This document shows, piece after piece, positions 7,693 to 44,185 of a stretch of DNA of 64,000 nucleotides. Source of the stretch: Betaproteobacteria bacterium (lineage in GTDB: Bacteria > Pseudomonadota > Gammaproteobacteria > Burkholderiales > SG8-39); the NCBI GenBank assembly GCA_016868105.1, contig VGIA01000001.1, positions 666 through 64,665 of the forward strand, read 5' to 3'. The position numbers and the translations under genes were made by a program. The number at the start of each line of letters is the position of its first letter. Position 1 is the stretch's first letter. The notes under the pieces are model-generated. The model was not told the DNA's origin. It did not search any database and was given only the letters and a program-made list of their open reading frames with translations.

Positions 7693-10048
7693 GCGAAAGC
7701 CAGGTCGAGACCACGGTATCGGGATTCAGCGACAGGCTGCCGATACCCTGCTGCATCAGCCAGCGCGCGAAGTCCGGATGGTCCGAGGGGCCCTGGCCGC
7801 AGATGCCGACGTATTTACCCTGCCGGCGGCAGGCGCTGATCGCCATCGACAGCATTGCCTGCACCGCCGCGTCTCGCTCGTCGAAGGACGCGGCCACCAG
7901 CCCGGAGTCGCGGTCCAGACCGAGGGTGAGCTGCGTCAGGTCGTTGGAACCGATGGAAAAGCCGTCGAAGTGCTCGAGGAACGCCTCCGCGAGCACGGCG
8001 TTGGAGGGCAGCTCGCACATCATGATGAGCCTGAGGCCGTTCTCGCCGCGCTTGAGGCCGTTGCTGCCCAGCAGCGCCACCACCTCGCGCGCTTCGCCGA
8101 GCGTGCGCACGAAGGGCACCATGATCTCGACATTGGTGTAGCCCATCTCGCCGCGCACCTTGCGCAGGGCCTCGCACTCCAGCTCGAAGCAGTCCTGGAA
8201 GGCCTTCGCCAGGTAGCGCGAGGCGCCGCGGAACCCGAGCATCGGGTTCTCCTCCTCCGGCTCGTAGCGCGCTCCACCCAGCAGCTTGCGGTACTCGTTG
8301 GACTTGAAGTCCGACAGCCGCACGATCACCGGCTTTGGCCAGAAGGCGGCGGCAATGGTGGCGATGCCTTCCACCAGCTTGTCGCGGAAGAAGCCGCGCG
8401 GGTCCGCGTAGCCGAGCGCGGCACGCGCAACCTCCTCCCTCAGGCCCGTGGGCAGGTCCGCGAACTCTAGGCAGGCCTTGGGATGGACGCCGATCTCGTT
8501 GTTGATGATGAATTCCAGCCGGGCCAGTCCGACCCCGGCATTGGGCAACTGCGCGAAATTGAAGGCGAGCCGGGGATTGCCTACGTTCATGGCGATTTTG
8601 AGCGGGATCTTCGGCAGCTCGCCGCGCGCGCTGGCGGTGACCTCGAAGGGCAGCGCGCCCTCGTAGATGTGGCCGGTATCGCCCTCGGCGCAGGACACGG
8701 TGACCGGCTGGCCGTCGGGCAGGGTCGAGGTGGCATCGCCGCAGCCGACCACCGCGGGGATGCCCAGCTCGCGGGCGATGATGGCCGCATGGCAGGTGCG
8801 GCCGCCGCGATTGGTGACGATGGCCGCTGCCACCTTCATCACCGGCTCCCAATTGGGATCGGTCATGTCGGTGACCAGCACGTCGCCCTTCCTGACCTTG
8901 GACATCTCAGCAGCATTGCCGATGATGCGCACCTTGCCTGCGCCGATGCGCTGGCCGATGGCGCGCCCGCTCGCCAGTATCCGCGAGCTGCCGCGCAGCT
9001 GGAAGCGTTCCTCGGTGCCGATGTCGGCCCGCGCGCGCACCGTCTCGGGCCGCGCCTGCAGCACGTAGAGCTTGCCGTCGCCGCCATCCTTCGCCCACTC
9101 CACGTCCATCGGGCGCCCGTAATGCTGCTCGATGGCGCAGCCCATGCGCGCCAGTTCCAGCACCTCGGCGTCGGTGAGCGAGAAACGGCCGGCGTCGGCC
9201 TGCGCGACCTCGACCATGCGCGTTGAGCGCCCGGCCGAGCGGCCCTCGTCATAGACCATCTTCTGCTGCTTCGAGCCCAGGCCGCGGCGCAGGATGGCGG
9301 GCTTTCCCGCCTGCAGCATCGGCTTGTGAACGTAGAACTCGTCCGGGTTCACCGTGCCCTGGACCACGGACTCGCCCAAGCCCCAGGCGGCGGTGATGAA
9401 CACGACGTCGCGGAAGCCGGACTCGGTATCCAGCGTGAACAGCACCCCGCTGGCGCCCAGGTCGCTGCGCACCATGCGCTGCACGGCCGCCGACAGCGCC
9501 ACCTCGCCGTGGGCAAAACCCAGGTGCGCCCGGTAGGCGATCGCCCGGTCGTTGTACAGCGAGGCATAGACCTGGCGGATGGCGGCCAGAACGTGGTCGA
9601 TGCCGTGGATGTTGAGCAAGGTCTCCTGCTGCCCCGCGAACGAGGCGTTGGGCAGGTCCTCGGCCGTCGCAGAGGAGCGGACTGCAAATGAAGTATCGCT
9701 TGAATAATCTTTTACAAGTACATGATAAATTGATCTTATTTCACTTTCAACATCCGCCGGGAACGGCGTACTCGCGATCCAGTCGCGGATCTCTGCGCCA
9801 CAGGCGGCAAGGGCCGTGATGTCCTCCGGATCCAGCTTCGCGATGCGCTCGGCGATACGTTGCTCCAGCCCCCCGGCCTGAACAAACCGCCTGTAGGCAG
9901 CGGCCGTGGTGGCCAATCCGCCCGGCACCCGGATCCCGGCCTGGGACAAGCCGCCGATCATCTCGCCCAGCGAGGCGTTCTTGCCGCCGACGCTGGGCAG
10001 GTCGGCCATGCGCAGGTCCTTGAGCCATGAAACGTACGGTCGCGTCAT
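7616..10048 (-). CDS. ppsA: phosphoenolpyruvate synthase
   Basis: 810 aa: ...[11 protein letters not shown]...[24 protein letters not shown]...[24 protein letters not shown]...[17 protein letters not shown]. It contains an atypical AT-rich patch (9683..9754). A ~24-aa Ala/Ser/Thr/Pro tail overlaps the smpB 3' end. Confidence 0.97.
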
Positions 10049-10068: not shown

Positions 10069-10893
10069 ATGACGCAGCGCCGCACCGTCTTTTTCGTCTC
10101 CGACGGCACCGGCATCACGGCGCAGATGCTGGGCCACAGCCTGCTGACGCAGTTCGAGGGGGTGCAGTTCAACCAGGTCACCCTGCCGTTCATCGACAGC
10201 GTGGACAAGGCCGCGCAATGCCTGGAGCGCATCGAGCGGGAGTCGCTCGTCGGAACCGGGACGCCGATCGTGTTTTCCACCCTCGTCAACAACGATCTGC
10301 GCGAGGTGGTACGGCGCGCCAACGCAGTGTTCCTGGACTTCTTCGAGACCTTCATCGACCCGCTGGAGGCCGGCCTGGGCATCAAGTCCAGCCACACCAT
10401 CGGCCGCTCGCACAGCGCCACCGACAAGCAGGAGTACAAGCAGCGCATGGAGGCGATCAATTTCTCCATGGCGCACGACGACGGCGCCTCGCACCGGGAA
10501 CTGGCCCAAGCGGACGTCATCCTGGTCGGCGTCTCCCGCAGCGGCAAGACGCCAACCAGCCTCTACTTGGCGCTGCAGTTCGGCGTCAAGGCGGCCAACT
10601 ACCCCCTGATCCCGGAGGATTTCGAGCGCATGCAGCTGCCCGAGGCGCTCAAGGGTTGCCGCCAGAAACTGTTCGGGCTCACCATCACCCCGGAGCGCTT
10701 GCGCGAGATCCGCAACGAGCGCAGGCCCGCCAGCAGCTACGCGGAACTGGCGAACTGCCGCTACGAAGTCGAGCGCGCCGAGGCGTTGATGCGGCGCGAG
10801 GGCATCAGCTGGATCAACTCCACGGCCAAGTCCATCGAGGAGATTGCCACCACCATCCTGCGAGAGCTCAAGCTGGAGCGCCACGTTTTCTGA
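10069..10893 (+). CDS. ppsR: PEP synthase regulatory protein (bifunctional kinase/pyrophosphorylase, DUF299)
   Basis: [29 protein letters not shown]...[34 protein letters not shown]. It is divergent to ppsA, separated by only 20 bp. Confidence 0.93.
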
Positions 10894-11656
10894 GCCGCTC
10901 CGCCTCGTAAAAGAGGATCGCCGCCGCCATGGCGACATTGAGCGACTCGGTGCCGGGCCGCACCGGGATCGTCACCTTGAGGTCTGCGCGCGAGGCGAGC
11001 GCGGCGCTCACACCCGGGCCTTCGGCGCCCAGGATCCAGCCCAGGCGCCCGTAAAGTTCGGCATCGCCGGGCGCCACGCCGCCGCGCGGCACGGCGAGGG
11101 CGACGCGGCCGCCGAACCGCTCTAGGTCCGATGCCAGGTCATCGCTGCGGCGCAGGCCGATCACGAAGTGCGCGCCCATCGCCGCCCGCAGCACCTTCGG
11201 TGACCAGGCGTCGGCGCAACCGGGCCCAAGCACCGCCACCGGCACGCCGAAGGCCGCCGCGCTGCGCAGGATGGCGCCGACGTTGCCCGCATCCTGGATG
11301 CCCTCCAGGAACACGCATGCCGCAGCCGATTCAAGCGCCTCGCCCTCCTGCGGCAGCCGGATTTCCGCGACGATGCCCTGGGGCGACTCGGCCTGCGCGA
11401 TGGCGACGAACAAGCTGTCCGCCAGGATCGTCGCCGTCACGCCGGAGCGCTGCACCAGTTGCGCCAGTTCGGTGCGTCCTGCGCCGCTCTCGCTCAGGAT
11501 CAACGCCTGCGGCCTGATGCCGGCCTCGAGGCAGGCGAGGACCAGGTGCGGCCCCTCGATGAGGGCGCAGCCCTCGCGGCGCCGCTCGCGCGGGTCCGCC
11601 GCCAGCCTGGTCCAGCGCCGCAGCCGTGGATTGTCCTGCGATCGCAGGACGCTCAT
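10868..11656 (-). CDS. TrmH/SpoU family RNA 2'-O-methyltransferase
   Basis: Motifs [57 protein letters not shown] 11656 forms an ATGA overlap with the upstream gene's stop (11653-11655). Confidence 0.85.
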
Positions 11657-12888
11657 CTGGGCTCGAGGGCGCAAGTGCGAAACCCGGCGAAGAGGTCCGA
11701 TCGCTCAGGGACGAAGAAATTCCGGAAGGTGCTGCGCGCGATCCGGGGCGAGGTCGTGAAGCCGCCGCCACGAAGCACCTTGTGATTGCCGAACCAGGGT
11801 TCGGAGTACTCCTTGTACGGGTCGCGCAGGAAGCCGGGGTACGGCAGGAAATCGCTCGAGGTCCACTCCCAGACGTTGCCGATCATCTGCCGCAGACCGA
11901 GCGCGCTGTCGCCTTCGGGATAGGCGTGCACGCCCGCAGTGACCGCGTTGTCGAGATTCGCCATCGAGGGCCGCCAGAGCTCCTCGCCCCACGGGTACGC
12001 GCGCTTGCGGCCGGAAACCGGGTCCCAGGTTGCGGCGAACTCCCACTCGGCCTCGGTGGGCAGGCGGCGGCCGGCGTAACGGCAGAAAGCCTGCGCCTCG
12101 TTCCAGCTAACGTGGATCACCGGCTCGTCGGCCGCCAGCGGCAGCCAGCGCTCAAAGCGGCGCTGCAGCCAAGTCCTCCCATGCTTGCGCCAGTGTGACG
12201 GCGGCGTGCCTCCGGCCTCGACATAGGCAAGATACTCGGCATTGGAAACCACGGTGCGGGCAATCCGGAACGGGGCGACAACGACCGGATGCGCCCACTT
12301 TTCGTTGTCGAACACGAAGCCTGCACCGCGCGCGGCGCCCAGTTCGAAGACCCCGCCCGGAACCGCCACGTCGCCCTGCGCGCACGCGCCACCCACAGGG
12401 TCCCTTTCCGGATGCGGCCGGGAGGCAAGCGACGGCGCCTCGTAGCCCAGCGTGTGGCGGGTGTAGTGGAACGCCTCCGCGTGCATGTCTTCGTGCCGCG
12501 CCGCGAGTCTCGCGAAATATGCGTCCTCCTCGACCCGGAAACCCTGCGCCAGCACGCGCTCCAGAACCTCGTCGCGATAGCGCAGCGTCGCGGCGAAATC
12601 AGGCAGCGGCAGGCTCCAGCGCGAATCGTGCGGCACCGTCGCGGAGTTGTAGAGCGCGTCCGCATTGGGCAGAATCGGCTCATGGCGCGCGACCGCATAC
12701 AGACCCGGCCCGGCCCGCCTCAGGCACCAGTACTCCTGGAACCAGCCCACGTGGCCGATTTCCCAGCGCGGCGGATTGACAATCGGCAGCAGCGGGCCGT
12801 ACTCGCGCGCGCCGCCGAGGTCGTCGGCCATCGCGCGTGTCCGCGCGCGGGCGGCCCGCAGTTCGGCGGCCGGAGTGGAGTCGCTCAT
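11653..12888 (-). CDS. senA: EgtB/SenA-family non-haem-iron sulfoxide/selenoxide synthase (DinB-like + FGE-sulfatase domains); probable selenoneine synthase
   Basis: 411 aa from ATG 12888. DinB-type His ligands: WEIGHVGWFQEYW and ARHEDMHAEAFHY. FGE-sulfatase motifs: HVSWNEAQAFCRYAGRRLPTEAEWEFAA, GNVWEWTSSDF, KVLRGGGF. The SenA rather than EgtB call rests on the divergent SenB-like glycosyltransferase next door. Confidence 0.65.
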   Translation of the reverse strand: MSDSTPAAELRAARARTRAMADDLGGAREYGPLLPIVNPPRWEIGHVGWFQEYWCLRRAGPGLYAVARHEPILPNADALYNSATVPHDSRWSLPLPDFAATLRYRDEVLERVLAQGFRVEEDAYFARLAARHEDMHAEAFHYTRHTLGYEAPSLASRPHPERDPVGGACAQGDVAVPGGVFELGAARGAGFVFDNEKWAHPVVVAPFRIARTVVSNAEYLAYVEAGGTPPSHWRKHGRTWLQRRFERWLPLAADEPVIHVSWNEAQAFCRYAGRRLPTEAEWEFAATWDPVSGRKRAYPWGEELWRPSMANLDNAVTAGVHAYPEGDSALGLRQMIGNVWEWTSSDFLPYPGFLRDPYKEYSEPWFGNHKVLRGGGFTTSPRIARSTFRNFFVPERSDLFAGFRTCALEPR

Positions 12889-12920
12889 GTGCCCTTGCAG
12901 TTTAGCGAACCGGGGCACCC

Positions 12921-13883
12921 ATGAGAATCGCATTGGTCACCCCTGCCGGCGCTGGCTCCCGCGCCGGCAATCGCCACACCGCGCTGCGCTGGGCTGCGAT
13001 GCTGCGCGCGGCCGGGCACCGGGTGTCGGTCGGAACCGCCTGGCAGGCGGGCACCCCGGCCGACCTGATGCTTGCGCTGCATGCGCGCCGCAGCCATGCC
13101 TCGATCAAGGCCTTCGCGCTGGCGCATCCGCAGCGCCCGCTGGTCCTCGCCCTGACCGGAACCGACCTGTACAGGGATATCCGCACCTCGGCCGAGGCCA
13201 GAGCTTCGCTGCGAATGGCACATCGCTTCATCACGTTGCAGCGGCTGGCCGCGCGCGAGCTTCCGCCGGCCCTGCGGCGCAGGGTGCGCGTGGTGGTCCA
13301 GTCCTCCGCGACCTCGCGCCGGCACAGCCCGGTGGCGGGCTCATTCCGCGTCGCGGTGATCGGGCATCTGCGCGAAGAGAAAGACCCGCTGCGCGCGCTG
13401 CTTGCGCTGCAGCGCCTGCCGTCGGAGGCACGCATCGAGATCGTCCAACTCGGCGAGGCGCTGGACGATGCCCTGGCGCATCAGGCGAGGTCCGCCATGC
13501 GGCGCGAGCGGCGCTATCGCTGGCTGGGCAGCGTGCCGCACGACCGCGCACTGCGCTGGCTCGCCTCCAGCCACGTGCTGGCGGTTTCCTCGCGCATGGA
13601 AGGCGGCGCCAACGTCGTGTCCGAGGCAATCCGTATCGGCGTGCCGGTGCTCGCTTCCCGCATTCCCGGAAACGTCGGCCTGCTCGGAGCCGGCTATCCG
13701 GGTTACTTCCCGCCTGGGAACGAGGCGGCGCTGGCGGCCCTGCTGGCGCGGGCGCAGGCCGATGCCGCTTTCTACCGCCGCCTGCGGGCGTGGATGCGAA
13801 AGTTGCGGCCGATGGTAGCGTCGCGCAACGAGGCCGCCGCGTTGCGCGGCGCGCTCAGCTTCGCGCGGCGAGCCGGCGCTTGA
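12921..13883 (+). CDS. senB: GT-B glycosyltransferase resembling selenoneine selenosugar synthase SenB
   Basis: 320 aa: [35 protein letters not shown]...[12 protein letters not shown]...GHLREEKDP...[34 protein letters not shown]. This matches my recollection of the SenB (TIGR04348-type) family. It needs HMM confirmation. Confidence 0.6.
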
Positions 13884-14436
13884 CCGGGCCGAAGGAACGG
13901 CGGTGGATCGCCGCCGGCCCGTGCCGCTGCAGCAAAGCGAGGTGCTCCGCGGTCGGATAGCCCTTGTGCCGGTCCAGGCGGTAGGCAGGAAACAGCAGAT
14001 GCAGACGCTGCATTTCCGCGTCGCGCGCGGTCTTGGCGAGAATGGACGCGGCCGAGATCACCGGGTGCAGCCGGTCGCCACCGATGATGGCGCGCACAGC
14101 GCAGGGCAACGCCGGGCAGCGGTTGCCGTCCACCCAGGCCGCGCCGGGAATCATGCCCAGCGCGTCGACCGCACGGCGCATCGCGAGCATGCTGGCCTGG
14201 AGGATGTTGATACGGTCGATTTCCTCCACCGTGGCCGCGGCAACCGCCCAGGCCAGCGCGCGCTCTCGGATCAGGAGCGCCAGCGCCTCGCGCCGCGGTG
14301 CGCTCAGGCGCTTGGAGTCCGCCAGGCCCTCGATTGGCCGGCCGGCATCGAGCACCACCGCAGCAGCGTAGACCGGGCCCGCGATCGGCCCCCGCCCGGC
14401 TTCGTCGATGCCGCAGATTGCGCGCTCAGGTCCCAT
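13855..14436 (-). CDS. rnhB: ribonuclease HII
   Basis: [29 protein letters not shown]...[11 protein letters not shown]...KGYPTAEHL; 193 aa. ATG 14436 overlaps the lpxB stop. Its 3' end overlaps the senB 3' end by 29 bp (convergent). Confidence 0.93.
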
Positions 14437-15565
14437 CGAGCAGGCGCAGCACTGCCTCCGCGGCCTTCTCGGCGGTGTTCTGCCGCAGCGCGGCGTGGAT
14501 GTCGCGGAACTTCGCCACCTGCGCGCGTTGCGCGGCCTCGTCCTGCAGCAGCGCGAGCAGCGCATCGGCGAGCGCGCCGGGTGTCGCCTTGTCCTGGATG
14601 AACTCGGGCACCAGTCGCTCGCCGGCGAGGATGTTCGGCAGGCCGATGAACGGCAGGTAGAGCATGCGCTTCATCAGCGCCCAGGTGAGCGGCGACTGCC
14701 GGTAGGTGATCACCATCGGTGTCTTGAACAGCGCGGCCTCGAGCGTCGCGGTGCCACTCGCCGCCAGGGCGATGTCGGCCGCGGCCAGCGCTTCGTGCGA
14801 GTGGCCGAACAAAAGCGTCAGCGGCAGGTCGCGCGCCTCGTTCCGGCGCAGCGCCTGCTCTAGCAGCCCGCGGGTCGCGCGCGACACCGTCGGGCAGACG
14901 AAGTGCAGCTCCGGCGACTCCTGCAGCATGCGGCGTGCGGTCTTGATAAAAAGGTCCGCCATGTAGCGTAGTTCTGAGCGCCGGCTGCCCGGCAGCAGGG
15001 CGACGATGCGGCTGCGCGGCGGCAGGCGCAATTCGGCGCGCGCCGCGCCCTTGTCTGGCTCAAGTGGAATGATGTCCGCAAGCGGATGGCCGACATAGGT
15101 CACCGGGACCCCGGCCTTCTCGTAAAGAGCCGGTTCGAAGGGGAACATGGCGAGGATGTGCGATACCGAGCGCGCGATGCGGCGCAGGCGCCAGCCGCGC
15201 CAGGCCCAGATCGAAGGGCTGACGTATTGAATCGCCGGGATGCCGGCCCGCTTCAGCTCGCGCTCCAGGTCGAGGTTGAAATCGGAGGCATCGACACCGA
15301 TGAACAGCCCGGGCCGGTCGGCGAGGCAGCGGGCCGCCAGCTTCTTGCGGATGCTCATGATCCCGCGGTAATGGCGGAGCACCTCGACGTAGCCGCGCAC
15401 GCCCAACTTGTCCATCGGCACTACTGCGTCGAAACCCTGCGCCGCCATCTTCGGACCGCCGATGCCGTAGAACGCCAGTCCCGGGCGGCGCGCTCTGAGC
15501 GCCGCGATCAGGTGCGCCGCCAGCAGGTCCCCGGAAGCCTCCCCGGCGACCATGGCGATGCGCAT
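14426..15565 (-). CDS. lpxB: lipid-A-disaccharide synthase
   Basis: [24 protein letters not shown]...[10 protein letters not shown]...LPGSRRSE...[20 protein letters not shown]; 379 aa from the internal ATG. Confidence 0.95.
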
Positions 15566-23210: not shown

Positions 23211-24005
23211 TCACGCCGCCGGAAGTTGCCGCAGGAGCAGCGCGCCAAGCGGCAGCGCCGCAGTGACGGCGTCGATCCGGTCAAGGATGCCGCCGTGGCC
23301 CGGCAGGATCCTGCCGCTGTCCTTGGCGCCGGCGGCGCGCTTGACCCCGGATTCGAGCAGGTCGCCGAGCACGCTGGCGGCGCACAGGAAGGCCGCGCCG
23401 AGGAGATAAGGCACCCAGATCGCGCCCTGGACCTGCGCCCGCAGGCTTGGAGCTGACATCGCGCAAATGATAGCGTAAGCAAGGCCTGCCGCTGCGGCGC
23501 CGGCGACACCCTCCCAGGTCTTTCCGGAACTGATCGAGGGCGCCAATTTTCGTCGTCCGCACGCCCGTCCGGTGAAGTAAGCCGCGGTATCTGCGGTCCA
23601 GACCAGGCCCAGCAGGACCAGCAGCTGGTCGCGGGGCAGCGCGACCATCGCCAACCCTGCCGGGACCAGCACCACCAGCCCTGCCAGGGCCGACAGCGCC
23701 GGCGCCGGCGCGCCGGGCCCGCGCGCCAGCCATGCGGGGGCGGCGGCGACCCAGAACACCAGCGCGACAAGCAGGACGCCGTCGAGCAGTCCGGGAAGCT
23801 GCAGCAGGGCGTACCACGCCACCAGGCATGCGGCGGCATAGACCGGCGCGACTGTGGCCGGCCAGCCCGTCAGCCGCGCCCATTCGTAGGCCCCGCTCGC
23901 GATCACTACCGACACCACGATCGCGAATTGGGTGCGCTCGAGAAGGAACAGCGCGGCGAGAAAAGCCGCCAGCAGGACGACGGCAGTGGCGGCCCGGACC
24001 AGCAC
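23211..24005 (-). CDS. cdsA: phosphatidate cytidylyltransferase
   Basis: A multi-pass membrane protein with the C-terminal signature [31 protein letters not shown] start at 24005; 264 aa. Confidence 0.92.
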
Positions 24006-30810: not shown

Positions 30811-31344
30811 CTACTGCTCCGGCGGCAGTTGCGCGTCGGGGAACAGGGCGTCGTTGAAGCCGAATTTCGACAGCTCCCGGATGCGCATCGGATAGAGGAT
30901 GCCGTCGAGGTGGTCGCATTCGTGCTGCACCACACGGGCATGAAAACCGGAAACGCTGCGCTCGAGGCGCCTGCCCTGGTCGTCCCATCCGGCGTAGCGC
31001 AGGCGCGACCACCGCGGCACCCAGCCGCGCATGCCGGGCACCGAAAGGCAGCCCTCCCAGTCCTCCTCGAGGTCCTGCGTCAGCGGCTGCAGCTGCGGAT
31101 TGATCAGCACCGTGTCGGGCACTTCCTCGGCATCCGGGTAGCGCGCATTGGCCTTGACGCCGAAGATCACCACCCGCAGGCCGACTCCGATCTGCGGCGC
31201 GGCCAGCCCGGCGCCGTTCAGCTGCGCCATGGTGTCGCGCATGTCCTGCAGCAGCGCGGCCAGTTCCGGGGTGCCAAAGCGCTCGACTTCGGATGCGCGT
31301 CGCAGCAGGCGCTCATCGCCCATGCGGAGCACTTCACGGATCAT
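30811..31344 (-). CDS. def: peptide deformylase
   Basis: [11 protein letters not shown]..., EGCLSVPG..., HECDHLDG; 177 aa. Its start forms an ATGA overlap with the mtnP stop. Confidence 0.92.
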
Positions 31345-32090
31345 GACCGGAACGAAGGGCTCGCCAGCGCCTCGATGATGCGCCGCACCCGTCCCATCGC
31401 GTCCTCCAGCACCGCCTCGATGGCCTCCAGCACAATGGCATGCTCGCTGTCGCCGCGGCCCGCGGCGTGGTTCGCCACCACGTTGATCGCCGCGTACGCC
31501 AGCCCGGCCTCGCGCGCGAGCGCAGCCTCCGGCATGCCGGTCATGCCGACAAGATCGGCGCCGTCGCGCTCCAGCCGGTTGATCTCCGCTGCCGTTTCCA
31601 GCCGCGGGCCCTGCGTGGCGGCGTAGACGCCGCCATCGGCGAGGACCTCGCCGCAGGCCTGCGCCGCGGCCAGGATCCGGGCGCGCAGCGGCTGGCTGTA
31701 CGGCTCGGTGAAGTCGACGTGAGTGACCTGCCCGTCCAGCCCCTCGAAGAAGGTCGAGCTGCGGCCGCAGGTGTAGTCGATGATCTGGTCGGGCACCACC
31801 AGCGCGCCAGGTCCGAAACCGCGCCGGATGCCGCCGACGGAGGCCACCGAGATCACCTCGGTAGCGCCCTGGTCCTTCAAGGCCCAGATGTTGGCGCGGT
31901 AATTGATCTTGTGCGGCGCGATGGTGTGGCCGTAACCGTGGCGCGCGATGAACATCAGGTCACGGCCACGGACCCGGCCCATGGTGAGCGCCGTGGACGG
32001 CTCGCCGTAGGGCGTGCGCACGACCCTGCGCCCGGTGGGCTCCAGGCTGGCGAGCTTGGACAGCCCGCTGCCGCCGATGATGGCCAGCAT
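31341..32090 (-). CDS. mtnP: S-methyl-5'-thioadenosine/thioinosine phosphorylase
   Basis: [13 protein letters not shown]...[26 protein letters not shown]...[20 protein letters not shown]; 249 aa from the internal ATG 32090 of track ORF 31341..32690. Confidence 0.9.
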
Positions 32091-32649
32091 CAGGTTCCCT
32101 TCATGGCGCGGATCTCCGGCAGGTTGCGCCAGAAGCCCTTGGCGTCCATGCCGCAGCCGAACACGAAACGGTCCGGAATGGCAAGGCCGACGAAATCGGC
32201 GCTGATGGGCCGGGGCCGTGCGAGCGTCTTCTGCACCAGCACCGCGCACTGGAAGCTCTCCGCGCCCAGCGCCAGCAGGCGTTCGCGGATCGCGCGCATG
32301 GTCTGTCCGGCGTCGAGAATGTCGTCCAGGACGAGGACCGCCCTGCCCCGAACCGATTGCGGGGGCTCGACCCTCCAGTCGATGCCGCCGCCGTGCGTCA
32401 CCGCGCCGTAGCGCGTGGCGTGGATGTAGTCGAAGTCGAGCGGAAACCGCAACCGCGGCAGCAACTGGCCGGCGAACACCACCGCGCCGCCCATGACCGC
32501 GAGTACCAGCGGATAGGCGCCCGCGAGGCGGGCCGTGATCTGCTGCGCCAGTGTGCCCATCGCCTGCTCGATCTCGGCCGCGCCGCACACAGGATCCGAG
32601 TCCCCGAGGAAGGCCCAGGCCGCCGCGGCGTCGGGTTTCATGCCTGCGC

Positions 32650-32653
<4 letters not shown>
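32090..32653 (-). CDS. hpt: hypoxanthine-guanine phosphoribosyltransferase-like protein
   Basis: PRPP-binding loop [15 protein letters not shown] plus ...[17 protein letters not shown]; 187 aa. ATG 32653 forms an ATGA overlap with the galU stop. Confidence 0.85.
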
Positions 32654-36474
<3,821 letters not shown>

Positions 36475-41895: not shown

Positions 41896-41923
41896 AACGC
41901 CTGAGCATGGCGTTGCCTGGCAC

Positions 41924-43051
41924 CTGAACAGCGCGCTGCAACTGGCGCGGGACCTGATCTCGCGGCGCTCGGTCACCCCGGAGGACGGCGGCTGCCAGGC
42001 GCTGCTCGCGCAGCGGCTCGCGGCCGCAGGATTCGCGGCCGAGACCCTGAGCTGCGGCGAGGTCTCCAATCTCTGGCTGCGCCGGGGCAAGGCCGCGCCC
42101 CTGCTGTGCTTCGCCGGGCACACCGACGTCGTGCCCTGCGGGCCCCTGGCCGACTGGCTCAGCGACCCGTTCGCGCCCGTGATCAGGGACGGCCGGCTGT
42201 ACGGCCGGGGCGCCGCCGATATGAAGTCCTCGATCGCCTGCTTCACGGTTGCCGTGGAGGCCTTTGTCGAGGAGCGCCCGCACCACGCCGGCTCGATCGC
42301 GTTCCTGCTCACATCGGACGAGGAAGGTCCGTCCGTGGACGGAACGGTGCGCGTGGTCGAACTGCTGCAGAAACGCGGCGAGCGGCTCGACTACTGCATC
42401 GTCGGCGAGCCCTCCTCCGTGAAGACCGCCGGGGACATGGTGCGCGTGGGACGCCGCGGATCGCTGCATGCAGTCCTTACCGTCCGCGGCGTGCAGGGCC
42501 ACGTGGCCTACCCGGAACAGGTCAGGAACCCGATCCACCTCGTGGCACCCGCGCTGGCGGAGCTGGCGGCGACCAGCTGGGACCAGGGCAACGAATTCTT
42601 CCCGCCCACCAGCTTCCAGGTCTCCAACTTCAATGCCGGCACCGGCGCTGACAACGTGGTTCCCGGCAGCGCCAGCCTGCTGTGCAATTTCCGCTATTCC
42701 ACCGCCAGCACCGAGCAGTCGCTGCGCGAGCGCTTCGAGGCCGTGCTGAACAAGCACGGCCTGCAGTACGAGGTGGCGTGGAAACTGAGCGGCAAGCCTT
42801 TCCTGAGCAGGCAGGGCAGGCTGACGGAGGCGGTGCTGCGGTCCGTCCGGGCGCATGCCGGAGTCGAGCCCCAGCTGTCCACTGGCGGCGGCACCTCGGA
42901 CGGACGCTTCATCATCGACATCTGCCCGGAAATCGTCGAACTCGGGCCAGTGAACGCCAGCATCCACAAGCTGAACGAGAACATCGAACTGGGCGCGTTC
43001 GAGGTCCTGAGCCGCATCTACCTCGGCATCCTGCGCCAGCTGCTGCCGTGA
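41924..43051 (+). CDS. dapE: succinyl-diaminopimelate desuccinylase (no canonical start codon at the conserved N-terminus)
   Basis: My translation of this frame from 41897 gives ...[38 protein letters not shown]...[12 protein letters not shown]...[10 protein letters not shown]..., a full-length DapE. The track ORF starts only at GTG 42131, about 70 codons too late. CTG 41924 would give the usual 375 aa. An in-frame stop lies at 41894-41896. Confidence 0.8.
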
Positions 43052-43887: not shown

Positions 43888-43895
43888 AGGAGACG

Positions 43896-43969
43896 GGGTG
43901 GCCGATGGGACTCGAACCCACAACAACTGGAATCACAATCCAGGACTCTACCGTTGAGCTACGGCCACC
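43896..43969 (-). tRNA. tRNA-His (anticodon GTG)
   Basis: The minus strand reads GGTGGCCGTAGCTCAACGGTAGAGTCCTGGATTGTGATTCCAGTTGTTGTGGGTTCGAGTCCCATCGGCCACCC. It forms a cloverleaf with an encoded G-1 paired to C73. CCA is not encoded. Confidence 0.93.
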
Positions 43970-44006
43970 ATTGCACTGCTCAGGACATCATCTTAGCGCC
44001 CGCTGC

Positions 44007-44083
44007 TGGCCTGCCCGGCGGGACTCGAACCCACAACCCCCAGCTTAGAAGGCTGGTGCTCTATCCGGTTGAGCTACGGGCAG
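44007..44083 (-). tRNA. tRNA-Arg (anticodon TCT)
   Basis: The minus strand reads CTGCCCGTAGCTCAACCGGATAGAGCACCAGCCTTCTAAGCTGGGGGTTGTGGGTTCGAGTCCCGCCGGGCAGGCCA. The acceptor stem is a perfect 7 bp and CCA is encoded. Confidence 0.93.
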
Positions 44084-44108
44084 ATCCGTTCGCCGTCCGG
44101 GTGCGACC

Positions 44109-44185
44109 TGGTCGGGGTGGAGAGATTTGAACTCCCGACATCCTGCTCCCAAAGCAGGCGCGCTACCAGGCTGCGCTACACCCCG
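44109..44185 (-). tRNA. tRNA-Pro (anticodon TGG)
   Basis: The minus strand reads CGGGGTGTAGCGCAGCCTGGTAGCGCGCCTGCTTTGGGAGCAGGATGTCGGGAGTTCAAATCTCTCCACCCCGACCA. CCA is encoded. Confidence 0.93.

Follow-up and report, generated by a model that had tools for sequence, protein, structure and literature searches.

A divergent senA–senB pair without an adjacent senC, set within a core operon of uncultured Burkholderiales

The steps catalysed by the selenosugar synthase SenB and the selenoneine synthase SenA are established for the enzymes of Variovorax paradoxus. Members of both families are encoded by a divergent pair of genes at positions 11653–13883 of a 64,000-nucleotide stretch of contig VGIA01000001.1 (Betaproteobacteria bacterium, assembly GCA_016868105.1, contig positions 666–64,665), the whole of which was analysed here and is referred to as the window. 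The pair is a bona fide senA–senB module of the known selenoneine pathway, and we consider it likely that it works as a functional two-gene unit, fed by selD and egtD genes encoded elsewhere in the genome. It has in common with the V. paradoxus senABC cluster (Kayrouz and Seyedsayamdost 2022; structures 8k5i for SenA, and 8jjq and 8fbx for SenB) both enzyme families, the divergent senA/senB orientation, matching catalytic and substrate-binding residues, and the lack of an egtD within the cluster. In V. paradoxus-type loci, which are ordered senA(−)|senB(+)–senC(+), senC comes after senB, whereas the window locus has no senC. The window SenA is ~36–43% identical to the V. paradoxus-type SenAs and retains ~49 residues of EgtB/OvsA-like sequence that are missing from V. 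paradoxus SenA. Finally, the pair is wedged into a core lpxB–rnhB–SpoU–ppsR operon, whereas the V. paradoxus cluster lies in an accessory region.

The nearest relatives that carry senC are the senBAC clusters of Betaproteobacteria (L008, GCA_973789235.1; L013, Nitrosovibrio sp. Nv4; L016 and L017), whose SenAs belong to the same long-loop subgroup (45–59% identity) and which share the divergent layout and the short spacer; L013 also has the −10-like sequence GCTAGACT. These clusters differ from the window in their accessory rather than core context and in having senC directly downstream of senA, in the order senB(−)|senA(+)–senC(+). In L008/L009 (59% SenA identity), senC stands at the place taken in the window by a SpoU methyltransferase gene, and the arrangement in L013, L016 and L017 is likewise; the cassette therefore also exists with senC. 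The ovs system (OvsA, OvsM and SenB/SenC; Kayrouz et al. 2024; structure 8u42) uses the same selenosugar donor. OvsA, which is found mostly in aquatic Gammaproteobacteria (Kayrouz et al. 2024), represents a sister subfamily of selenoxide synthases with the histidine-binding motif M/Q/A, as against Y/N/F in the window protein, and the window has no OvsM-type methyltransferase. Type I EgtB from Mycobacterium thermoresistibile (4x8b) shares with the window SenA the fold, the iron triad, the catalytic tyrosine and the hercynine-binding asparagine and aromatic residue, but its Arg87 and Asp416 are replaced in the window protein by His and Phe.

The senA gene (11653–12888, minus strand) encodes a non-haem-iron selenoxide synthase of 411 residues, counted from an MSDST start, with DinB_2 and FGE-sulfatase domains in Pfam. 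An earlier note on this DNA, made from the letters alone, had described this architecture and had proposed profile searches to separate SenA from EgtB. In NCBIfam, the protein matches the SenA model NF041186 with 452.9 bits, above the cutoff of 420 and over profile positions 9–382 of 382, and it falls below the cutoff of 360 for the EgtB model TIGR03440, with 290.8 bits. The three iron-binding histidines and the catalytic tyrosine align with H51, H134, H138 and Y377 of EgtB, one His lying in the motif EIGHVG, two in RHEDMH and the Tyr in DPYKEY. The column of EgtB R87 is occupied by His (VPHDSRW) and that of D416 by Phe (FRNFFVP). SenA is defined by the replacement of the thiol-binding Arg87 and Asp416 of EgtB by His and by Phe or Tyr (10.1101/2022.04.13.486033), and the composite active-site motif is the basis on which the discoverers defined the subfamilies. 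At the columns of OvsA M401, Q430 and A431, the window SenA and all members of its clade (see below) have Y, N and F. From the presence of the iron ligands, the tyrosine, the His/Phe pair and the Y/N/F motif, we conclude that the protein is a hercynine-type SenA and neither an EgtB nor an OvsA. The nearest SenA homologue in public collections is 97% identical and lies on a short metagenome contig. Relatives bear source names of the form 'MAG: selenoneine synthase SenA [Burkholderiales / Proteobacteria bacterium]' (MAG, metagenome-assembled genome), so that the NCBI pipeline already recognises the protein.

The partner gene, senB (12921–13883, plus strand), encodes a 320-residue selenosugar synthase, a selenium glycosyltransferase of the GT-B type with a Glycos_transf_1 domain in Pfam. 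The assignment to the SenB family, which the earlier note had made, is borne out by the NCBIfam model TIGR04348, matched with 398.1 bits (cutoff 300) over profile positions 1–307 of 310; the SenB structures 8k5u, 8jjq and 8fbx score 213–221 bits. Mutagenesis of V. paradoxus SenB identified N20, T23, H58, T83, T85, D86, R155, K158, E231 and E239 as important (PMC10891094), and equivalents of all of these are kept in the window SenB. Among them, K158 is the catalytic lysine, N20, T23 and E231 form the sugar-selectivity triad, and T83 and T85 belong to the selenophosphate pocket; an EGGAHV motif is also described (PMC10891094). The window protein departs from the V. paradoxus enzyme in having Glu at the position of V157 and EGGANV in place of EGGAHV, each of which is also what is seen most often at that position in the senC-linked SenBs compared. 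The catalytic and selenophosphate-pocket residues are identical between senC-linked and senC-less relatives.

The arrangement is common to a whole lineage of uncultured Burkholderiales. Seven homologues with SenAs 63–84% identical to that of the window were looked up, yielding, with near-duplicates discounted, eight distinct clade loci (L001, L002, L003, L004/L005, L006/L007, L092, L093 and L094/L095). All eight have the arrangement rnhB–senB(−)|senA(+)–SpoU–ppsR, within the gene order dxr–rseP–bamA–skp–lpxD–fabZ–lpxA–lpxB–rnhB–senB(−)|senA(+)–SpoU–ppsR(−)–ppsA–smpB...guaB–guaA; the MAGs that carry it include GCA_964564865.1, GCA_050186705.1, GCA_037443705.1, GCA_005792595.1 and GCA_005778665.1. 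Genomes were also scanned with a chimeric query, the window SenA joined to the SenC of L008, and the best 80 loci were considered. Among these, the full arrangement recurs in a MAG at 54% SenA identity (L082), and senB–senA–SpoU recurs at 50–52% (L085 and L089). Further senAB-only loci (L010/L011, L081 and L090) occupy other genomic contexts. In a neighbour-joining tree of SenA, built without bootstrap support, senC-linked and senC-less loci are interspersed in the long-loop group, and OvsA is placed outside the SenA group. The earlier note had asked whether the split, divergent arrangement might reflect a variant pathway. Divergence at senA|senB is the usual, general layout of sen clusters and is no sign of a variant pathway, for which we find no sequence evidence. 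Another split of the sen genes is seen on the metagenome contigs L113, L123, L155 and L180, which have divergent senC(−)|senB(+) pairs; on L113 there is no senA within several kilobases of the pair.

We envisage that SenB would combine selenophosphate with a uridine diphosphate (UDP) sugar, UDP-GlcNAc or UDP-Glc, to give a 1-seleno-sugar, which SenA would join to C2 of hercynine in an iron- and O2-dependent reaction; the resulting selenoxide would then eliminate spontaneously to selenoneine. That the window enzymes share this chemistry with those of V. paradoxus is expected from their family membership and conserved residues. The selenophosphate would be supplied by a general selD elsewhere in the genome, for example in the mnmH–selD pair common in related bacteria, and the hercynine would be supplied by an egtD that likewise lies elsewhere. 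The selenoneine pathway itself was already known, and its chemistry is left unchanged by this locus. With this locus, uncultured Burkholderiales of a soil and freshwater lineage join the predicted makers of selenoneine. It shows that a sen module can consist of two genes stably lodged in a core operon, with presence or absence of the pair at one exact site among related lineages. It also offers a natural test of the ability of a general SelD to supply SenB. Searches that require selD beside senB miss such loci, and the locus is therefore useful for genome mining.

The absence of senC near the pair, reported in the earlier note, holds for the whole 64-kb window. A tblastn search of it with the SenC of a related locus revealed no SelD homologue, the best E-value being 6, and NCBIfam scans of its gene-like open reading frames (ORFs) gave no match to the SelD family or to the EgtD family. 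There is thus no senC within the ~5 kb of senB that would define a three-gene sen cluster at this locus, and no gene of the AIR-synthase type (SelD) was found within 10 kb at the eight clade loci. The earlier statement that senC is usually clustered with senA and senB stands only in part. In the founding study, just 827 of 2,353 TIGR04348 genes have both an egtB homologue and selD within 5 kb (10.1101/2022.04.13.486033), and clustering with senC is therefore common but not the rule. Similarly, the lack of an adjacent egtD was correctly reported but is normal for sen clusters rather than notable: hercynine is normally taken from the ergothioneine pathway, and egtD is co-localised in a small subset of clusters only (10.1101/2022.04.13.486033). 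Genes of selenometabolite pathways may, moreover, be chromosomally separated (Kayrouz et al. 2024). The SenC of L008 is 71–75% identical to SelDs of Burkholderiales and Rhodocyclaceae MAGs whose genes are divergently paired with mnmH, the gene for tRNA 2-selenouridine synthase, and both kinds of protein score as ordinary SelD on model NF002098 (522 bits for the L008 SenC and 534 bits for an mnmH-linked SelD). Since the two are so alike, a general SelD is a plausible selenophosphate donor.

Several points nevertheless weigh against a functional selenoneine module supplied from elsewhere. Neither the 64-kb window nor, in the clade relatives, the 10 kb on either side of the pair was found to contain selD or egtD. 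The window SenA exceeds the cutoff of NF041186 by just 33 bits. Among structures in the PDB, it scores slightly higher on OvsA (8ux5, the OvsA-YNF mutant, 277 bits; 8u41, the wild type, 268 bits) than on V. paradoxus SenA (8k5i, 261 bits), with EgtB (4x8b) at 214 bits; this slight lead we attribute to the ~49-residue segment (residues 288–336) that the window SenA keeps and V. paradoxus SenA is missing. We know of no biochemically characterised member of the long-loop SenA subgroup. Lastly, the promoter and the co-transcription proposed for senA below rest on sequence only.

Of the competing explanations, the one that survives best, improbable though we judge it to be, is that the pair resides in a genome with no selenophosphate synthetase, where SenB would draw on another source of selenium or sulfur to yield a product other than selenoneine made by the canonical route. 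It gains from the absence of senC from the window and from all of the clade loci, from the age of the senC-less arrangement, which is under purifying selection, and from the fact that no selD was found in the clade genomes among the matches listed. In the chimeric-query scan, whose listing is uninformative as to co-occurrence, the best 80 loci were mostly SelD, no assembly was represented twice, and none of the clade MAG prefixes (CAZMDA, JBFWYE, JBBINV, SXRK, SXMV, JAUXMZ, DASRIK and CAWUUY) occurred among the orphan-selD contigs of those 80 loci. A DNA-pattern scan of metagenomes for high-GC selD likewise gave no contig name from clade-carrying samples among the matches listed. If these genomes do have no selD, the selenium donor of SenB must be one that has yet to be described. 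Against this, the selenophosphate pocket of SenB and the lysine that cleaves the selenium–phosphorus bond (the K158 equivalent) are the same as in senC-linked SenBs, related Burkholderiales MAGs commonly carry selD genes of the same type, often beside mnmH, and the ovs system offers a documented case of chromosomally separated selenometabolite genes. A route using sulfur alone is disfavoured, as thioglucose is a very poor substrate of SenA and the sulfoxide formed from it does not undergo elimination to ergothioneine. We give similarly little credence to the broader proposal that the lineage has no dedicated, and perhaps no, selenophosphate synthetase and that senA–senB are hard-wired into the core lipid-A/RNase HII/RNA-methyltransferase operon, their product, selenoneine or a related selenometabolite, being made constitutively as a housekeeping antioxidant.

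The site of the pair is seen in its vacant form in two lineages (L216/L217 and L218/L219) that have the gene order of the window without senAB and methyltransferase homologues 60–64% identical to that of the window. Here the rnhB stop codon overlaps the start of the SpoU methyltransferase gene directly, as ATGA or GTGA. From this overlap it follows that senAB is an insert in a core operon, present in some lineages and absent from others, and that the methyltransferase is a resident housekeeping gene, normally coupled to rnhB, rather than an OvsM-like pathway enzyme; its candidacy as a component of the pathway is ruled out by these sites. The concatenated flanking proteins give a neighbour-joining tree (1,197 positions, without support values) in which the two lineages lacking senAB are nested among sen-bearing ones, L218 being nearest to the window group; this indicates an exact-site presence/absence polymorphism of senAB among related lineages. 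SenA and SenB have diverged in step with the flanking genes. This pattern can be explained by an early insertion that was later lost in places, or by recombination in the conserved flanks that exchanged sen+ and sen− alleles.

The same comparisons bear on whether the pair might be a decaying senBAC remnant that has lost senC and no longer functions, which we regard as very unlikely. It is true that senC is absent from the position it holds in the nearest relatives and that the pair has been lost from this site, or was never there, in some related lineages. Both ORFs are, however, of full length with all catalytic residues intact, and lineages whose SenAs are as little as ~50–54% identical still have the pair. 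Ratios of nonsynonymous to synonymous substitution (dN/dS), calculated by NG86 for the window against L001 and L002, are 0.15–0.16 for senA and 0.19–0.21 for senB. They resemble those of the essential neighbours (rnhB, 0.15–0.16; lpxB, 0.13–0.16; rnhB, lpxB and lpxA together, 0.13–0.16), the SpoU gene having 0.33–0.35. We conclude from the low, neighbour-like values that senA and senB are maintained by selection and are not remnants.

Less credible still is the suggestion that the minus-strand gene encodes an OvsA acting on C5 of histidine, with the adjacent methyltransferase serving as OvsM. OvsA entries do head the PDB list and the methyltransferase gene is translationally coupled to the minus-strand gene, but the top entry, 8ux5, is a mutant built to behave like SenA, and the window protein has the Y, N and F of that mutant rather than the wild-type M401, Q430 and A431. 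OvsA also lies outside the SenA group in the tree, and the neighbouring methyltransferase is a SpoU-class RNA enzyme with an RNA-binding domain, whose gene overlaps rnhB where senAB is absent. The OvsA identity is thus rejected by the Y/N/F motif. As for a canonical EgtB making ergothioneine beside an unrelated glycosyltransferase, an idea to which the EgtB-like domain architecture and some older database names of relatives ('ergothioneine biosynthesis protein EgtB') lend themselves, it is contradicted by the EgtB model score and by His and Phe at the thiol-binding columns, the partner scores above the cutoff of the SenB equivalog model, egtA, egtC, egtD and egtE are all absent from the vicinity, and we attach almost no weight to it.

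The start codons of senA and senB are separated by a spacer of 32 nucleotides (12889–12920). The longest ORF in the senA frame, 11653–12933 (426 residues), would run into the start of senB, and alignment with the N-termini of relatives favours the start at 12888, with which the 32-bp gap given in the earlier note agrees. The ORF positions and sequence motifs quoted there are all present in the window, and its flanking genes, rnhB and a TrmH-family methyltransferase gene, are found as described. The methyltransferase gene (10868–11656, minus strand) encodes a SpoU/TrmH-family RNA 2'-O-methyltransferase with a SpoU_methylase domain and an MRM3-like substrate-binding domain in Pfam. Its ATG (11656–11654) overlaps the TGA of senA (11655–11653) as ATGA, an overlap that the earlier note had rightly pointed out. 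On the other side, rnhB (13855–14565, minus strand) encodes RNase HII and matches NF000596 with 262.8 bits (cutoff 251); the match begins at residue 50 of the ORF, and the true start is probably near 14430. The 3' ends of senB and rnhB overlap convergently by 29 nucleotides (13855–13883), and the identical 29-nucleotide overlap is found in L001 and L002. In L092 (GCA_037443705.1), a small ORF and a gene for a PIN-domain toxin lie between rnhB and senB (8345–9021), so that the rnhB–senB junction tolerates further insertions.

The divergent spacers of the loci compared (L001–L006, L092, L093 and L013) span just 14–51 nucleotides. Of the eight clade loci compared, seven have GCTAGACT, GCTAAACT or GCTACACT 6–10 nucleotides ahead of the senA ATG, as does L013; the exception is L006, where the motif is 30 nucleotides upstream of the called senA start. 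The window version of this GCTAGACT-like motif is TAAACT, at 12904–12899 on the minus strand. A consensus promoter scan gave no sigma-70 site at threshold in the spacer. TAAACT is a possible −10 element, which may give a leaderless or very short-leader senA–SpoU transcript, and a matching −35 region would overlap the start codon of senB. Given its ATGA coupling to the methyltransferase gene, senA probably shares a transcript with it.

Apart from those of senA and senB, the NCBIfam families found among the gene-like ORFs of the window are all housekeeping families, including guaA, guaB, smpB, ppsA, lpxD, bamA, rseP, dxr, cdsA, map, glnD, def, S-methyl-5'-thioadenosine/thioinosine (MTA/MTI) phosphorylase, hpt, galU, ligA, smc, queF, dapD, dapE, prmB, dksA, pnp, truB, infB, nusA, rluB, scpAB and trpS. 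The other lpx-to-rpsB genes of the window were named through synteny with Pfam-annotated relatives. The phosphorylase gene, hpt and galU lie together at 31341–33540 on the minus strand. GalU makes UDP-glucose, a sugar donor usable by SenB; galU is here a housekeeping gene. At the 5' end of dapE (41903–42131), homology extends upstream of the first canonical in-frame start (42131), at which the profile match is already at position 72. The in-frame stretch upstream of 42131 encodes a typical DapE N-terminus with no ATG, GTG or TTG, and the ATG at 41907 is shifted by one base from the dapE frame and meets a stop after six codons. This suggests an indel of 1 nucleotide or a fault in the assembly, or else the use of a non-canonical start. 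A 98-nucleotide 'tRNA-Ala' called by ARAGORN inside cdsA (23626–23723) has no Rfam support and is probably spurious. A cluster of tRNA-His, tRNA-Arg and tRNA-Pro genes at 43895–44185 is supported by both ARAGORN and Rfam.

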